A DNA stretch of 63,274 bases, counting the filler, from Collodictyon triciliatum (lineage: Eukaryota): NCBI GenBank assembly GCA_043381765.1. It is 11 parts of 11 records of this genome, joined end to end, with 100 filler letters (N's around TTAATTAATTAA, not from the genome) between each part and the next. Parts side by side here need not be neighbours in the genome. Positions count along the whole stretch, not along the records: positions 55,570 to 61,811 come from JBHJMP010004619.1; 10 more parts are not named here. One strand, written 5' to 3'. Under the pieces are notes generated by a model. It did not search any database and was not told the origin of the DNA. It saw only the letters and a list, made by a program, of their open reading frames with translations. Shown one piece after another: positions 49,317-61,811 of this stretch; the first letter of the stretch is position 1; each line of letters starts with the position of its first letter. Made by a program: the position numbers and the translations under genes.

Positions 49317-52300
49317 ATGAGAACCGCAAATAAGGCCCTCCACTCCAAGGCACATCCCAAGTACCGAACTGACTCTTTGAGCTTCCCATCATCAAAGATC
49401 GAGGAAAAGATGAAGCAGGCCGCCCCTTTTGGAGCTGCACCTGTCGCCTCACCACGTGTAAAGGCCTCCGCCAAAGCAGATGCAGAGCCTCGCAGAGGTA
49501 ACGAAGTCCTCGCCCAGCCTGTATTCTCTCCACGAGACACCACACAACCACGCCCAATGCCGATTCGCAGAGGAATGACGCCTGAACGATCAACTGCTCC
49601 GTACTCGCAGTCAGTCAGCTCGCAGCAGACCCTCTCAAGCTCCCTTCCAACAGCCGCCGTACTGCAGACCCTTTCTTCTCACGCAAACAGACGACCCCAA
49701 TCACTCGATGTGAATCATGTCCAATCGCCTCGATTGGCGAGCCAAATCTCCCTACCATCGCCAAACAGTCACCAGACAGCCTACATACTCAGTGAAGGCG
49801 ATCCCAATCCGCTGTCTCATCAGAGTACTCAACCTCCAAACTTGAATCCGATGCAATCACCACGATATACAAATCACTTTCTACTTCCATCCCCAACTCA
49901 GAGACATACATCATTTGCCGAGGCATTGTCCATAGTTTCTCCTCAGCACCCACAAGCCAATCCACCATCAACCATTTTGCACTATGCACAATCACCTAAG
50001 CTTACATCCTATTTACCCATGGGACAAGGATATAATATTCCGTCAACTGGCATGGATGCATCTACCTCCTCAAAAGCTCGTGCAATTCCAACATCAAACC
50101 AAAATGGATTCACAAATTACAAGGAGCCTAATGTAGGAGTGAACATGAAAAAGAAAGAGTTTGAAGATAACTCTCAAAATGTACCAACTATATCTGGGAT
50201 GAAACAACCTTCATGGATGGAATATGCTAAGAGTAAAGAAACAAAAATTCCTTTTGATTACGATCAATCCAGCACTTTCCCAGGTACACCTCGTATTGAT
50301 TCGCGTCCCATTATGTCCCCAAGAAATGTAAAGAACACACCTCGCTCAAATCCAATACTTGGAGCACATGTGCAAAATACTCAGCAAATCGACATCCGTG
50401 AATATCCTACGAATCAAATAGTGCAGATAAATCCACCATCTTCCATGGGAATTCATATGCAGTATACGCATGATTCTAATACCATATCAAGGCTGCCTAG
50501 TGATACTTTCCAAATGAATAGACAAAGAACCCAATCTGATCTTTTTCGACTGCCTATTCAATTACTGGACCAACCGACAGTGGTACCAAAGCCTAAAGTT
50601 AGCTTGAACACTGCACCTGAACTGAGGCCTTCTCAGCCACCTCTCAAATCACAACAAAAGCCTCATGATGAAATGATATCTAAAGACACAAGAAGAGAAC
50701 ATAAAAGTCAGCTGGAACAACAAGGACCCCCTATTTATGAGTCTTCCACAGGTATGTTATTCAGAAAGAATCATCATAGAAAAGAATCAAGCACGTATAA
50801 TCCAGGAGCAACTGTTTGTGATTCTAGCGTAGACCTAGTTGACCAATTGAGTTCAACAATATATGTTTCATCCAGGCTAAGAAACTCTGAAGCTATCCAG
50901 GGTAAAAAACCAGAAGGAATACCTTGTGTGGATGCGTTCCAAAAAGATTTAGTTCTCTCTTCCAAAAGAATCGAAACGAAAGAAAAAACTAGTACCTCTT
51001 TCCTGAACCAAGAAAGCAGCCCCTACCCGTCTCTTGTTGGTCGGGGTATAGACGAGAGTATCCAATCAATATGCTCTCCAATAACTGACATCCCACAAGA
51101 TTTATCGTTCAATTACTCCCATTCAAGTGAAGACGAAGTGCAAGAGTATGTTCCGACACACTCAATAACCCCCGCCCCTCTTGGTCTACACGAACCTCAA
51201 AAGAAATCTGATGAACAAAATCACCGCATGCTACTCCAAAAAAAATATACTACTGCTCCATATGTATCGATTCTGCACCACCCAAACCAAATTCTAAAGG
51301 CACCTATGCCATCAGATGACAGGGAGCAAATGGGAAGACACTCCCAAAAAGAAAGCCAGCACAGCTCCATTCAATCAAAACAGAAAGATGTACCTGCACC
51401 CACTATTTCGACATCACATCCTTCCTCATCGTTGGCTTTTTCACCACTACTCGGAGTCCAAACAAAAAATGCAGAACATTTACCCAAGATGAGAACAAGC
51501 TCTCCCCATTATGGATTGGAAGAAGCGATGTTTGAGTTAAGAAAACAGATGAATTTAATATCCAGACCTCAGGAACGGCACGCTAGCTCAGATTTAATTG
51601 AGCACAATTTTGAAAAACTGGATGCTTCTGTTACTGAAAACAAAGTTCATCACTTGGACAATAAAACTGCATTTAACAGTGGTCAGGAAAGCTTGGAAAG
51701 TCATCCCATTCAAAGGTACAACTTTATTTTTTAGCAATATATTATTATTGTTATTATTATGATATTATATTTATTTATCTATCTATCTATCTATCTATCT
51801 ATAATTATATTGTGCCTAACAAAAGAAGATAATTACATTACATAGTAAAATTGGACTCAAGACAGAAAATACGGCTGCAATAAGTTGTGAATCGGAAAGT
51901 ATAGCAGAAAATAAAAGCCCATCTTATGTAGAGGAGGCAGATTCTATTTTGCAAAAATACACAGATATCGAACATACTGAGAAGAAGAAGAAAGGAAAAC
52001 CAAAAGAGAAAACTACCAGTAACACCAACGAGGACAAGCAATTAAAGAAGGAAAAAAAGGAGCTACGACGCTTAGAAAAGTACAAGAAGGAAAGGGAAGA
52101 ATTAATCAAGGCTTCCACCAAGATACAATTAGACAGGGAATCGATAATGCCCCAACAAAATTCTACCCGTTCAAGCTCTAAGGCGTCTTCCGAAACCACA
52201 AATATGAACGAAAGTGATACCACAACGTTGAGTCGAACTGCATCAGGTCTTGGACATTCGTCCAGTTCCTCCGTATCAGCTCACGATGTAAATTCTCAGG

Positions 52301-55680: not shown

Positions 55681-58051
55681 CCGATCGATACAACTTCGGT
55701 GTTTGGCAAGATCTTTTGGGAATCCCTTTGGACCGGAGGGTCAGCGAAAGGCGAAGGTGTTGTCGGATAGATAGAACCAACAGAAGGACACGATGTGTTA
55801 TCCGGAGGTGTACTTTGAGTATTTCTGCTAGCCTCAGCTCGGTTCGAAAAAATCTCAAGTGACGGGACATTTCCGTGAGGGACTCCAGGAGATGTAGCTT
55901 TCTCCCAGGGTCTTGAGGTGATGGCGGTATGTGCATCTTCTACAGGACTTCCCACTTCATCATCAAGTAATCCCTCGTCGGTTAATCCGAGTGAATTAAC
56001 AACAGGAGTAAGCGCTTTCATCTTGGGATGCGATTCTTCTTTTATGGGGGTTCGCTCCGCTATGATATTACCAAATAAAAAAATTAAGAAAAAGAATTAC
56101 CCTTATTCTGAATGAACCAAGCACAAAATGTAATTATGAAAAATCATTTGAGAATAAATAAGTCAATTATTTTATTTCGTTTCATTTCATTTTTTTTTGG
56201 ATTCAAAGATTACTCAGCATTTCAAAAATCGTGCTTCAACAAACCTTCACCACTTAAGGCATAAGATGATCCAAAATCCGTTTCAGGTGTAGCTTTTCCA
56301 TTTCTTCCTGAAATTTTACTCCCGGGTGCTCCAGTGGGTATTGGACCAGGATTTTTGGAGCTGATAAACATTTACAAAATTAAGGATGGATGAATAATAG
56401 TATTCTGACTATGCATTTGCTTAAAAAAATCTACATTATACTTGTTTTCATGTGTCTTATATATAAATAATTACATCATGGCTGATGAGTTTTATTCGGT
56501 TAATGTTGATAATTCGATGTAACCATCTTCAAACGGGTAAAATAAAAAAAGGATGAAAATGAATAGTTGTGTTTTCTTTTTCTTACGATAAATTCTGATA
56601 AGCCGACGTCGGAGCTTTTTCCACTTAATGACCCATTTTATTGTTTTGAACAAGAGAAAAGAATTATATTGTTTAAGAACAGAAGAGTCAATATAGCCAT
56701 ATTTTGTTTCAAAATGTAAAGAAATGAGTCATTTTGGAGTCATGATATGAATAAAAGAATATGTTGTAATATTATTTTAAGAAAATGGTAGTAAATTACA
56801 ATGCCAAGATAAAAGCTCAGTAGGAACTGTTGATGTTGAGTCCAATTGATCAATATTATGGGAAATCATATGGTTATGATGGGCATTAGGTCTGTCAACG
56901 TCCCCACTAGGCCCGGACTCATTCGATTCCAATGACTTCAATATTATACTTTGGGCAAGTCCTAGGCGCCTAGCTTGGAACTTAGGGAGTAGATATGGGC
57001 TCTTCATCACAGTATTTTCATTTAAGGCGAGAAATTGTGATAATGAGATATTGTGTTCAAGTAAAATATTTGCGTAGTAGTCATGCCTATTTTTCCTGAG
57101 TATTTGTACAACTTCTGTGTTCGACATTGTGTCTTGTCGAATTGGGGAGTGGAAAGACTCAGGAAGACCAGATTCAATAGCAAAATGTCCTTTGAAGAAA
57201 ATTAGAACATCTTGGGCACTCGGTCTTTCATCTGAATTGTTAGACCACATTCTCCCTAAGTAGGATGCAATTTCCGTGGGAATAGATGCTGGAATACTAG
57301 GGCGAGTGCCCTTCATGATGTTATTGCGACATGTCGTCAAGCTGCCATCAGTAAATGGTTGTGTGGTTGTGAAGAGACTCCATATAAGAAGTGCAAAGGA
57401 ATAGACATCAGAGCACACTCCGGGATTGGAAAAATTCCCCTCCATGAACATATGGACCTCGGGTGATGCGTATCGCATGGCAACCATTTCACTTTCAGGA
57501 TCCTTCTTCAAGGATCGCTGCGATAAAGGCGCAATTCCAAAATCACAGATCTTGCACTCGCCGTTTGGTGTTAGAATGATGTTATGTGGATGCAACCTGC
57601 CGTGGTACATGTTTGGTCTCGATTTGCTTATGGCAAGGATTCCCTGTGCTATGGAATGAATGAATATTTTGGGTGTGAAATTCTCATACAACATGACTCC
57701 TCCTGTCGTGCACGTTTGCATGGCAGAGGCCATGCTTCTTCCACTTTCCATGGTACTGATATATAGTAATCCGCGTGAAGTCAGAGACCAACCGATGCAT
57801 GCGACAATACTGGGGTGTTGAAGTTGTTGTGATGCTCGCATCCACTCCTGTAGTTGTACACAGAACCCTGTATCGTTTTCAAATATGCTCCGTGGGATAG
57901 ATTTGACGATGCAGAGCAGGCTAGGCCCCATACGAGCCATGTAAGCACAATATAGGCTTCCATGCCCAAAGATTCTGTACATAGAGTTTGAGGTCTTTAT
58001 GAACTCTATTTGGCTGTCAACTACGTTGCTGGCCGCAATCACCCCATCCAT
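55681..58051 (-). CDS. TKL-like pseudokinase followed by a SAM-like domain, 3' truncated
   Basis: Kinase fold with CIVK, LQHPSIV, YHGRLHPHNI (no catalytic Asp), KICDFG, RYASPE, SDVYSF, ERPS. Then MSNTEVVQILRKNRHDYYANILLEHNISLSQFLAL (SAM-like) and further low-complexity exons. Confidence 0.8.
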
Positions 58052-58243
58052 CCTGGTTCTGCAGGCGTCGCTGTTCTCAATATGATTTATTTAATGTATG
58101 GGTCATGTGTTTAGGCTTTCTTTNNNNNNNNNNNNNNNNNNNNNNNNNNNNNNNNNNNNNNNNNNNNNNNNNNNNNNNNNNNNNNNNNNNNNNNNNNNNN
58201 NNNNNNNNNNNNNNNNNNNNNNNNNNNNNNNNCTTATCTCATT

Positions 58244-58273
58244 CCCGCTGCGAAGTACGGGTACTCTTGCTAG
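58244..58273 (+). mobile_element. Helitron-type 3' terminus (GC-rich hairpin + CTAG followed by T)
   Basis: CCCGcTGCgaaGTACGGG hairpin at 58244-58261, 8-nt spacer, CTAG at 58270-58273, then T. The rest of the element would lie in the adjacent gap. Confidence 0.55.
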
Positions 58274-58467
58274 TCACATATAAAAAAATTTTGTGTTTGC
58301 AACAACGCGCACATTTTGAGAGCCTCGATAGATGCTTAACTTAACATAAATTGATTTTATGCAGTTTTTTTTTAATTAAATTGATTAATTGACTGATTGA
58401 CTAAAGTTTTATTGGAATTGAAAACTAGGTAGTCTTCTAAAGGAAAAAGTAAAACAAAGACTTTCAC

Positions 58468-60339
58468 ATGAAGAAAAGGAACCGTCTTGAGTCTGAGAGT
58501 CTTAAGTCCGTAGAGCCAGACTACAGAAATGTGAAAGCATCTCTAAAGCCTATTTTAAAGAATGCGGATGACTATGACGAAATCAACGATACAGTTTTAT
58601 TGTGTCATAATTTGGTTACCGACACTTATCTGTTTGCAAGATGTTACATATTGAAATCACAACAACTCCCAACAATCGATCAAAAGTGTTTTTTTGTACG
58701 CTTTAAGGACAGTCGGAATAGTCTCACAAGATAGACTCGCAAGATTAAAAAAAAAAACCGTAAATGAGTGAAGACATGATGACTTTTTATCTCTATGATT
58801 TTCGATTCCTTTTGTCCCGAAAAGAACGCTTTCCATTGATTGGACTGTCTCATGTATAACCGTACTTGGCGAAGCAAATGTTAACAGCTTATCAATATAA
58901 CATTAAGGAACATTCTGTAAAGAGATTACCGCGCTTTATAAAGTAAACAGTTCCTAAAGATGAGAATATTACGGAAGCTGTTAAAAAGGCAGAGTTACGA
59001 AAGTTAAAAAAAGGCCATTTTCAAGAAACTCGAAATACCGGAACAATATAAAGAATGGGCTATAACGAATTTGCACCATATCATAACCAGCGATATTGTA
59101 AATGGTATCGAATATGACGTCAAAGTCAATCCAAATAAGTACATTCCATGTTTGATTTACATGAATCTCATTTTTGAGGATATTTGAACAAAACTGTTTC
59201 AGCCAATCTCTATAAAAACAAACGATATACCATTTCATATTACTCTAGATGCTGCATGTTTGATAGATTCGTTAGTATTATCTGGAAAAAATTATTACTG
59301 AAGAACATATCAAGATGCAAAGAGACCCTATGGGATGACTTCTTTGAAATGAAGAAGAGGGTCTTTCATCAAAGGGACTACAATTTTATATACATGATAC
59401 AAACAGACGGTTGGCGGTGTCATTATTATTGTTTGAAAAGAAAGGTATTTCAAATTCAAAATCCCAATTAATCAAAAGACCCAAGAATATGTTTATATTG
59501 ATGAACTTTCCGAAGAGCAGTTATCTTTATTAGCGACAAAAAAAAATAGTTAGATTGGACGCAGGCAAGTATAATTTGGTTTACATGGTGGATGAGACAG
59601 GTAAGAAATTACGTTGCACGGCACACCAAAGAAGACATGATAGAAATCTCTTAAAAATCACAAAATACTCTTTCGCGAGAAAAAGAAAGAAAAGTACAAT
59701 GCTTCAGGGATATGCATGGTAACAGATTTACAAAGTGCTGTTTCTTTTGTTCCCCTGACTTTTGAAGAGAATTATCAGTTTGAGACATTAAGAGTATCTT
59801 TAATCGATTAAGAGACATAACTGAGTAAACATAATTCATGCACCGTCGATTTTGAACAATTTCGAGAATATGTAACTATGAAATCAAGATACCAGATAGA
59901 ATTTTCCAGATTTTATGAACACGTACCTTTTCGAAAGATGAGATGGAAACAGTATGTTAATGCAAAAAGAAGTGAAGCATTGTTTATGGACAGCATCGAA
60001 AAGACATTTGGCAAGGATGTTGTACTGGCGTATGGAGACTGGAGCAGAAAATGTCTGCAGAAACATTTTATGCCAACAATTGGATGAGGATTACAAAAAA
60101 TACTACCCAAACGTTTTGAAACAGTTAGTGTAGGTGAATTTAGAACCTCCAAGGTGTGATGCAACTGCGAAAAAGAACTAGAATATATGACTGAAAGGAA
60201 ATACAAAAAAATTTATAGATGTCTCATGTGTAAAGAACACAATCGCTCAGAAAGCAAACAAACTGTATTCTTGGCAAGGGACTTTAACAGCGCTAATAAT
60301 ATACTCAAGAAAGTTCTTTCAATTCTTCAAAATATGTAG
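58468..60339 (+). pseudogene. Fanzor (eukaryotic TnpB-family RNA-guided RuvC endonuclease), decayed copy of about 620 codons
   Basis: Reading across frameshifts gives YLAKQMLTAYQYNIKEH, YDVKVNP...YMN, KLFQPI...IPFHITLD, MIQTDG, RuvC-I IVRLDAGKYNLVYMVD (D 59558-60), FRKMRWKQY, VVLAYGDWS, RuvC-II VGEFRTSKV (E 60136-38), Zn ribbon *CNC...CLMCKEH and RuvC-III RDFNSANNI (D 60280-82). At least 7 in-frame stops and several frameshifts. Confidence 0.88.
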
Positions 60340-60530
60340 GCTGTTGGGTCTTTCCAGGCAGCCTTCACCACTACACGACCTTTGTGAAAAAAGTGGTGAG
60401 ACGTTGGATACTAGCGCACCAGGTTTACCAATCTTTCGGTGATACACTCCTAGTTACACTAATAAACGAGAGAGGTGTACCGATAGGATGCATTATGGTA
60501 TGTTTGCTTTCGTGGCTGGGCGGTGTACAA
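60338..60530 (+). ncRNA. Candidate Fanzor omegaRNA scaffold
   Basis: Three consecutive stems begin at the ORF stop: 60338-60364, 60365-60399 and a long nested stem at about 60409-60527. Position matches TnpB/Fanzor guide RNAs. No expression evidence. Confidence 0.55.
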
Positions 60531-61086
60531 TTCTTTGATTTTTGCGTTCGCTCGCTACACAAGACAGACTGAGTTGCCGTTGCTTTACAGTCCAAGAGCA
60601 GAGCTATGTTCCTGCTGTAGTGTGTCTCCCACCTTTGGCATCAAATGAGGACGAGGAGGAGGAATAGGAGCAAGAGTTTATACTCCACTTGTTGAAATCA
60701 AATGGGATTGTCCTTGCAAACATACAAGAGACTGCTTTTCAAAAACATTCTTCTCCGTTCGATTATTTTCTTTCAAAAGAGACAAAGACAGACAGAAAAG
60801 GGGGAAAAGAGATGGATGGAGATAGAATTAAGTGAGTGGAAGTGAATAGAATCTGCAGAAGGGGTATCATTAAGCGATTAAAGATAGTGGGGTCGAGAAG
60901 ACGTGTAAATCAGAGGGTGTGATTTTGCGGATAACCTCGAATCATTAAACCCTCCAGAAATCGCCATCAATCAGCAGTTTTTCTCTTCATTTTCTTTTTC
61001 TTTTTTGATTTTTTTCAATCATGATTAATATCACTGTGATTATTATTTCGATTTTTTTTGTTTGATTTTGTTTCCTTCGACTGGAA

Positions 61087-61640
61087 TCATGAGAAGCTTA
61101 AGAGTTCCTCGTGGTGCTCGAGGTTGTCTTGGTCTACCCGCGCACCTCTTTGCCGATTTGTTCTGCGGCTCCTAAGCGCATCGACCCAGTCATGTGCCTG
61201 GTGCAGAAGCGCCTCTGATTGCTCACACAGATGATCAAACGTCCCGTTTGTGCCCAAGCAGTAAATGGCATATCCGCCAGCCATGCCTCCAACAGACATC
61301 AGTTTTGCAGGCCACGAGGCCAGCCATATCGCGCAGAAGGACAGGATGATGGGTGGGATGCTTAGCATCTGTTTGCGGATGTGTTATTGAATGGCCCAGT
61401 GATGTGATGCTTGGTCTCTTAGCAGGAATGAAAAAAGAAAAGGGAGCAAGCACGAGAGATAGAGAAAAATCGAGATGTGGACCCAGATAGTTTTATGAAA
61501 CTCACCGCTCCACCAACGAGGCCGCCGGGAACCACGTATGGTCTAGGCATATCGGGCTCTGATATCTTCAAGTAGAAATATGCGCTAAATTCAAGGATGA
61601 TTGACCACCCGTAGTAAATCATGTCCAGCTCAACAAGGGC
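61087..61640 (-). CDS. APC-superfamily amino acid/polyamine transporter, C-terminal fragment
   Basis: LEFSAYFYLKISEPDMPRPYVVPGGLVG followed by MLSIPPIILSFCAIWLASW, typical of the LAT/polyamine transporter C-terminus. Confidence 0.8.
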
Positions 61641-61734
61641 CTATGCGCAGGTATATCCGGCGTGAGTTTGCTCGTAATAAGTAATCAGTCCTTCAGGAAT
61701 CAATAGACATAGAGGCGATGGAAATGAAGGACAG

Positions 61735-61738
<4 letters not shown>

Positions 61739-61811
<73 letters not shown>
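61739..61811. repeat. (GA)n microsatellite at contig end
   Basis: Read directly. Confidence 0.95.

Follow-up and report, generated by a model that had tools for sequence, protein, structure and literature searches.

In IS200/IS605 elements, the right-end hairpin of the HUH enzyme lies inside the scaffold of a guide RNA. Here we describe a locus of Collodictyon triciliatum at which a Helitron end and the guide RNA (omegaRNA) of a Fanzor1 nuclease appear to share bases in a similar way. The locus lies on contig G000:C4619, within a window (the whole stretch of DNA analyzed, 63,274 nucleotides [nt] long) that is overall a row of short contigs. The reading that we favor, with a probability of roughly 70%, is that a dead, non-autonomous Helitron1 element carries Fanzor1 here and has at its right end, at positions 60338-60454, an omegaRNA scaffold of about 117 nt.

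The IS200/IS605 TnpB systems resemble this locus in combining an HUH enzyme, a right-end RNA, and a guide given by the flank, a parallel drawn in PMC10432273; here RepHel would take the place of Y1 TnpA, Fanzor1 that of TnpB, and a predicted terminal stem that of the pseudoknot. The solved Fanzor1 omegaRNAs measure 150 nt (GtFz1), 90 nt (SpuFz1), and 75 nt (PpFz1) (PMC11423790, PMC10432273). These systems share with ours a homologous nuclease, a right-end RNA, and a flank-derived guide, and the GtFz1 RNA likewise overlaps C-terminal codons (PMC10432273). They differ in their carrier, the window copy is dead, and no likeness in scaffold sequence was evident by eye, unaligned, to the entries of Table S3 in PMC11423790. 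CRe-1, 2, 3/CrFNuc of Chlamydomonas reinhardtii, as described in PMC3627910 and PMC10530073, also place Fanzor1 in a transposase-less Helitron with many copies and a structured 3' RNA. They are Helitron2 elements: their inverted repeats are asymmetric, they insert at TTTT, often with variable duplications, and they contain introns. The C. triciliatum element has TC...hairpin-CTAG ends and junctions of the A-T type, lacks a duplication, and encodes a protein that belongs to another branch.

Reviews record that Fanzors occur in Helitrons, which are not known to leave an empty site, and for this reason do not settle what role the Fanzors have there (PMC13565253, PMC10432273). In the literature we found Fanzors in Helitron2 and in unspecified Repbase "Helitron" entries and no omegaRNA on a TC...CTAG Helitron end, although Repbase or supplementary files may hold some.

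The 3' end of the element and its candidate RNA

Homology to positions 60250-60620 ended at 60431-60458 in every non-self full match (40 scored of 343 candidates). Identity to the window across 46 copies, calculated per 10 nt and with no shuffled baseline, was 0.87-0.96 up to 60427, 0.66-0.69 up to 60457, and 0.44-0.63 beyond. When 34 of 49 copies were anchored at their ends (15 with poor anchor scores were omitted), CTAG was followed by T in 32 and then by unrelated DNA; the anchor itself rewards the T. The terminal motif was intact in 39 of 66 distinct copies, with T as the next base in 35 of the 39 and A after the T in 21, and the same CTAG-T end was present in 13 of 17 copies found via left-end or middle searches. 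Summed contig depth in two public runs, which hold spliced contigs and of which one is RNA only by a guess, fell from 100-160 to 8-23 in the bin containing the element end. Beyond it, 60455-60660 is single-copy, its one genome match being itself. The scaffold would thus span 60338-60454, and a guide of the 14-15 nt described for Fanzors (PMC10432273) would start at 60455 or 60456.

A preliminary description of this DNA had placed the end of conservation near 60530, after a scaffold of about 190 nt, with the guide starting at 60529-60531, a position about 75 nt inside unique host DNA. That proposal depended on a nested third stem. Its complementarities do exist, and the letters of all stems listed were confirmed, but each of the 26 pairs of the nested stem had an ensemble probability of at most 0.04, and enforcing them cost about 7 kcal/mol (-57.6 for the best fold against -64.5 for the minimum free energy [MFE] fold). 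Region 60400-60530 alone folded with a z score of -1.45. The 3' partners sit in the single-copy flank (60455-60660), past the boundary at which the copies end (60453), and partner-like motifs occurred in the flanks of just 4 of 64 other copies. The preliminary description had named an element boundary ahead of its stems as grounds for refutation, and for this third stem the boundary does lie there. From the low pair probabilities, the cost in energy, and the position of the partners, we take this stem to be chance complementarity and give the 190-nt scaffold virtually no chance of being correct. The whole 213-nt stretch first proposed had only a marginal fold (z -1.97, with 9 of 200 shuffles as good).

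The two 5' stems fared differently. Positions 60338-60399 folded at -26.3 kcal/mol with a z score of -3.63, and none of 200 shuffles was as good; fifteen 118-nt control windows from the body of the open reading frame (ORF) ranged from -1.34 to +1.64. Dozens of copies in the genome retain both stems. The majority sequence of the family folded into three stems (z -5.07, 0 of 300 shuffles as good).

The third stem of this majority sequence pairs TACTAG (60409-60414) with the terminal CTAG plus the T and A of the flank and encloses a 20-nt palindrome. An identical terminal stem was the MFE structure in single copies L022, L020, and L120, and an alternative was found in L019, these four having been selected visually because their ends are intact. 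The window copy has a damaged palindrome, and its terminal stem had a probability of about 0.39 when folding stopped at 60470 and 0 with a longer flank. On these predicted folds, one short stretch appears to be both the last stem of the RNA and the stop signal of the transposon. The loop of the terminator (window positions 60434-60437) occurs in two reverse-complement forms, GAAA type in 34 copies and TTTC type in 18, with other sequences in 14 of the 66. The two forms are an inversion inside the palindrome, and our literature search found nothing on such a palindrome-loop inversion for Helitrons.

The same RNA with the same boundary might instead form, at its 3' end, a TnpB-like pseudoknot in which the terminal CTAG pairs with the loop of a hairpin spanning 60400-60426. 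The hairpin form is 1 kcal/mol less stable than the MFE fold; in L019 it is itself the MFE, and both forms pair the same bases. Relatives, however, have a plain terminal stem, and the accounts of Fanzor1 RNAs in PMC10432273 and PMC10711439 report them without a pseudoknot, and we regard this fold as improbable.

The gene upstream is a Fanzor1 pseudogene. A tblastn search with P0001, the closest intact relative (648 amino acids [aa]), met many stops and frameshifts from the ATG at 58468 onward, and all 150 scored copies are pseudogenes as well. The broken ORF weakens the word "active" and leaves membership of the Fanzor1 family untouched. P0001, which shares 69% identity with an open stretch of 217 aa in copy L005, matches all three solved Fanzor1 proteins (GtFz1, PpFz1, and SpuFz1) at E values of 2e-28 to 4e-23. 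P0001 has the RuvC D, the shifted E just before the zinc finger, and the RD motif, and the letters of all three also occur in the window fragments. Pfam returned no significant family for the window's Fanzor fragments or for P0001, and Rfam returned nothing on the scaffold and two weak snoRNA matches elsewhere.

These results support the identity first proposed, an omegaRNA scaffold of a Fanzor whose guide comes from the flank, in an account from which the pseudogene state and the Helitron carrier were absent. Its placement of the RNA immediately after the Fanzor stop describes the window copy and a minority of the others. The window stop is a TAG at 60337-60339, and the seven codons directly before it are missing from this copy. 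Across 50 rows, the codon before stem 1 is TAG in 16 and CAG in 27; copies with CAG run on to a TGA at 60385-60387, and the frame of P0001 is likewise open through this region. The read-through form of the ORF overlaps stems 1 and 2.

The Helitron carrier

Judged by its ends, the carrier is a non-autonomous canonical Helitron (Helitron1) in the sense defined in PMC3627910. A CTRR 3' end is present, with the 20-nt subterminal palindrome about 10 nt before it in the majority sequence. The classical Helitron-end pattern occurs 26 times in the genome and 0 times in a reversed control; most of these ends close Fanzor-less Helitrons, and one (L247) is without the 5' arm of the hairpin. The Fanzor-less family starts, after an A, with TCTATACAAT, and its starting 17-mer has 37 genome occurrences versus 1 in the control. 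Twenty-nine distinct starts were read, of which 3 directly follow CTAG as CTAG-TC tandem junctions, and A is at -1 in 18 of 24 non-tandem starts. Fanzor copies L263 and L117 open with the same 17-mer (17/17 and 16/17), both preceded by T. Starts with A at -1 belong mostly to the Fanzor-less family, and the T of the target side is the one counted in 35 of 39 copies above. At the family level, a 5'-TC terminus is present (L117, L263, and L066). In the window copy the 5' terminus is hidden by an N gap at 58124-58232. Position 58274 was ruled out as the 5' end, as other copies reach about 1.3 kb further. Resolved starts were too few for a target-adjacent motif (TAM) to be read from the left flanks.

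Neither exact nor fuzzy tests revealed a target duplication in 12 two-ended copies (7.0 matches of 9, versus 6.8 for wrong pairs), and no terminal inverted repeat was found in 58230-61800. A Tc1/mariner carrier was considered and rejected: its inverted repeats and TA duplications are absent here and present in viral relatives. The broader proposal of a mariner-like or unclassified cut-and-paste carrier takes its force from the nearest relatives with context, which bear inverted repeats, TA duplications, and DDE_3 transposases. It is already largely refuted by the CTAG-T end, the lack of inverted repeats and duplications, the 5' terminus common to the Fanzor-less family, and the RepHel remnants, and we consider it very improbable.

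The genome carries RepHel, with matches to Helraiser 7lcc at E values of 3e-34 and 5e-30. DNA 5' in the RepHel locus is 70-77% identical to parts of Fanzor copies L033 and L072, and in eight loci of the Fanzor-less family the upstream DNA matches the RepHel locus or the 5' part of the Fanzor elements. An ATAAA-like motif lies in the A-rich 3' flank of 23 of 34 Fanzor family members and 18 of 26 Fanzor-less ones (3-6 further out). Since both families have it, we assign the bias to RepHel; a similar AT bias 3' of the target is described for Helraiser (PMC4778049). Helraiser also has a 5'-TC, a palindrome about 10 nt before CTAG-3', an A-T target, and head-to-tail junctions (PMC4778049). Unlike it, the C. 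triciliatum element is without its own RepHel and carries a Fanzor and an omegaRNA.

Several other loci bear on this carrier. A young, non-autonomous, Fanzor-less Helitron1 family (L235 at G000:C2589:124-1349; L229-L287) has near-identical 5' ends and head-to-tail tandems, which suggests recent RepHel activity. The RepHel gene at L113/L091 (G000:C6377) stays open for at least 1064 codons, counted across assembly gaps, and is a candidate autonomous partner. In the derivative elements L256 (G000:C7635) and L263, the 5' half of the Fanzor gene is gone; the remaining 3' half is joined, in L256, at a T to an internal Helitron terminator. L073 and L089 have a common left flank, a segmental duplication after insertion.

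Relatives, origin, and possible mode of action

A metagenome scan gave at least 80 loci and a viral scan gave 7, nearly all at 37-47% identity to P0001 among the matches listed. Inverted repeats were found in 11 of 12 relatives examined, nearly all with TA on both sides, and two relatives encode DDE_3 transposases. The closest (L142-L145 and L226) are giant-virus mariner Fanzor1 elements of the PGv-1 type (PMC3627910). Their sequence 3' of the RD-NS motif shows stem 1 abutting stem 2, an A-rich bulge, a linker ending in TTGAT, and a third, long stem. The C. triciliatum copies have stem 1, stem 2, and the linker in this layout, at an equal distance from the motif. The stem-2 core was present in 70 of 73 distinct relative ends, in which the inner hairpin swaps letters and keeps pairs. 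Most relatives close the third stem with TAC...GTA, drawing on the TA duplication, in agreement with the Fanzor1 RNA described in PMC10711439 as three stems with no pseudoknot. Their elements end in an inverted repeat plus TA and encode DDE transposases, whereas the C. triciliatum third stem holds the Helitron terminator. This large clade of intact mariner-borne Fanzor1 genes (L142-L226) in metagenome and giant-virus contigs has well-defined, covarying omegaRNAs and left flanks that are mostly TTTA or ATTA, and would be well suited to building an RNA family model.

A model made from five virus-like loci alone matched the scaffold in 22 of 26 loci, each time at the correct start and on the correct strand. 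In a fitted alignment, 9 of 23 stem pairs differed on both sides between the C. triciliatum copies and the relatives, as counted after 5 of 18 rows had been removed as antisense or unrelated matches. Homology between the scaffold and the virus-like loci therefore has moderate support from sequence comparison, helped by the identical position. In a quick, midpoint-rooted tree, which is not a rooted test, three copies and P0001 were joined (99) beside the L142-L226 group (94, unstarred), their sister, among other mariner-type rows (82). The tree is consistent with a mariner origin of this Fanzor1. Neither protein nor pattern searches of viral contigs recovered the DNA context of P0001, and the metagenome matches listed were all 37-47% relatives.

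We propose that a Helitron read through its own terminator and captured a Fanzor1 gene from a mariner-type element. Helitrons take up downstream DNA by read-through, as in the example of Helraiser (PMC4778049). A new end may then have formed at a hairpin-CTAG inside the third stem of the RNA, in which case the two 5' stems persisted and the Helitron terminator took the place of the mariner end within the third stem. The bypassed terminator is still visible in the window's subfamily, where its junction with the cassette recurs in L033/L238 and L043; most copies have about 560 other bases instead. The window's internal hairpin is damaged (z 0.22 as RNA).

In an active ancestor, the transcript would have run past the element end into the flank. 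Stems 1 and 2 would have bound the nuclease, and pairing of TACTAG with CTAG plus the target T, often with the A as well, would have fixed the junction between scaffold and guide. The next 15 or so flank bases could then have guided cutting of the empty site, and repair from the filled allele would restore or copy the element (homing), while RepHel, acting in trans, would have moved it. The subterminal hairpin would have had two uses, telling RepHel where to stop on single-stranded DNA and forming part of the RNA. With the target T, and often the next A, inside the scaffold, the TAM would by analogy end in AT or ATA; absorption of fixed flank bases into Fanzor1 scaffolds is described in PMC10711439.

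The family presents both ends, Fanzor-less sibling Helitrons, RepHel, and mariner-borne relatives together, and this makes visible what a guide RNA retains when it passes to another host transposon. The retained parts would be stems 1 and 2, the linker, and the terminal pairing, and the swapped part would be the end recognized by the transposase. The intact close relative P0001 makes the system testable.

Several results weigh against our reading. Across the 37 copies not selected through the scaffold region, conservation was 0.90-0.93 in the scaffold and 0.93 in the ORF. All stems together held only 5 double changes in 66 genomic copies, and for 48 copies RNAalifold returned only part of a fold, of poor quality and with no covarying pair, so that the covariation expected in the preliminary description was not found. 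With the scaffold kept no better than the ORF and so few double changes, the copies seem to decay neutrally. The terminal stem is the weakest part (74% of cells paired in the 66 copies), and its near-equal alternative has been noted above. A protein search found no intact ORF in the 150 places scored of 717 candidates, with a longest open frame of 427 aa. The virus-like model scored low (best E 0.008; the window match, at E 1.2, ranked third), its antisense and chance matches reached 12-18 bits, and it found none of five more distant relatives. The 5' terminus is recognizable in a minority of old copies and not in the window copy. We found no empty site and no joint skipping the element in the public-run contigs, which show presence and not absence, and we saw no small RNA in these runs, which are contigs blind to RNA ends, strand, and level.

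Several of these points also fit another history, in which the Fanzor was captured with part of its RNA as passive cargo, leaving stems 1 and 2 as relics and the third stem as nothing but a DNA terminator, and DNA was never cut in the Helitron form. Lack of excess conservation or covariation within the genome, the broken state of every scored copy, and read-through capture of downstream DNA by Helitrons (PMC4778049) are all in its favor. On the other side, the last 290 ORF bases are open in the majority sequence with the RuvC E and D motifs kept, which argues for decay of the copies after their insertion; the new end again provides a TAC...GTA terminal stem, placed where relatives have theirs; and an intact 648-aa relative clusters with the copies. 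We consider passive carriage unlikely.

A bolder extension of the Helitron1-borne omegaRNA, which we offer as a speculation with rather low odds, is that Fanzor1 was active inside the canonical Helitron after its move from mariner, with the third stem rebuilt on the terminator, and that RNAs spanning element junctions supplied a self-aimed guide. An RNA read over the junction of a circle or of a tandem would have the family's left end for its guide, since such junctions join CTAG to the 5' end, and RepHel prefers targets whose 3' side resembles the Helitron 5' end (T..ATAAA). Such a guide could cut the left junction of any integrated copy, including Fanzor-less ones. If this were true, the self-aimed guide would have a role in Helitron transposition or its control.

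Feature coordinates and neighboring genes

Table 1. Features of the Fanzor1-bearing element in window coordinates
Feature	Position	Strand	Basis or remark
Older internal Helitron1-type 3' end, decayed hairpin and CTAG	58244..58273	+	Pattern match 58250-58274, directly 5' of the Fanzor cassette
Fanzor cassette of the element	58274..60453	+	84.5% identity to copy L116 over 2.2 kb
Fanzor1 pseudogene	58468..60387	+	tblastn with P0001; ATG at 58468
omegaRNA stem 1 (candidate)	60338..60364	+	Fold; 95.6% of cells paired in 66 copies
omegaRNA stem 2 (candidate), inner hairpin and A-rich 3' bulge	60365..60399	+	Fold; 91% of cells paired in 66 copies; relatives share the layout, inner stem varies
Linker, 9 nt	60400..60408	+	Best-conserved part, 0.96-0.97 identity to majority
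5' arm TACTAG of predicted terminal stem	60409..60414	+	Partner is CTAG plus target T (plus A); MFE of majority sequence
Subterminal hairpin: Helitron terminator, inner part of stem 3	60426..60444	+	Decayed in the window copy; loop in TTTC orientation
CTAG, 3' terminus of the element	60450..60453	+	Copy alignment
Target-site T	60454..60454	+	T in 35/39 copies with intact terminal motif
Putative guide, about 15 nt, start 60455 or 60456	60455..60470	+	Boundary inference; unique flank

A host gene at 60662-61642 on the minus strand converges on the element end, and two runs skip 61369-61505 in it with intron-like ends. On the other side, an intron-free protein kinase gene (56777-58051, minus strand; PF07714, E 8e-24) starts about 200 bases from the left part of the element. 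Elsewhere in the window we noted ORFs for a leucine-rich-repeat protein (26461-27723, plus strand), two long ORFs of 805 and 558 aa with no Pfam match (49317-51734 and 31227-32903, both plus strand), and a histone-H1-like low-complexity ORF (4411-5673, minus strand).
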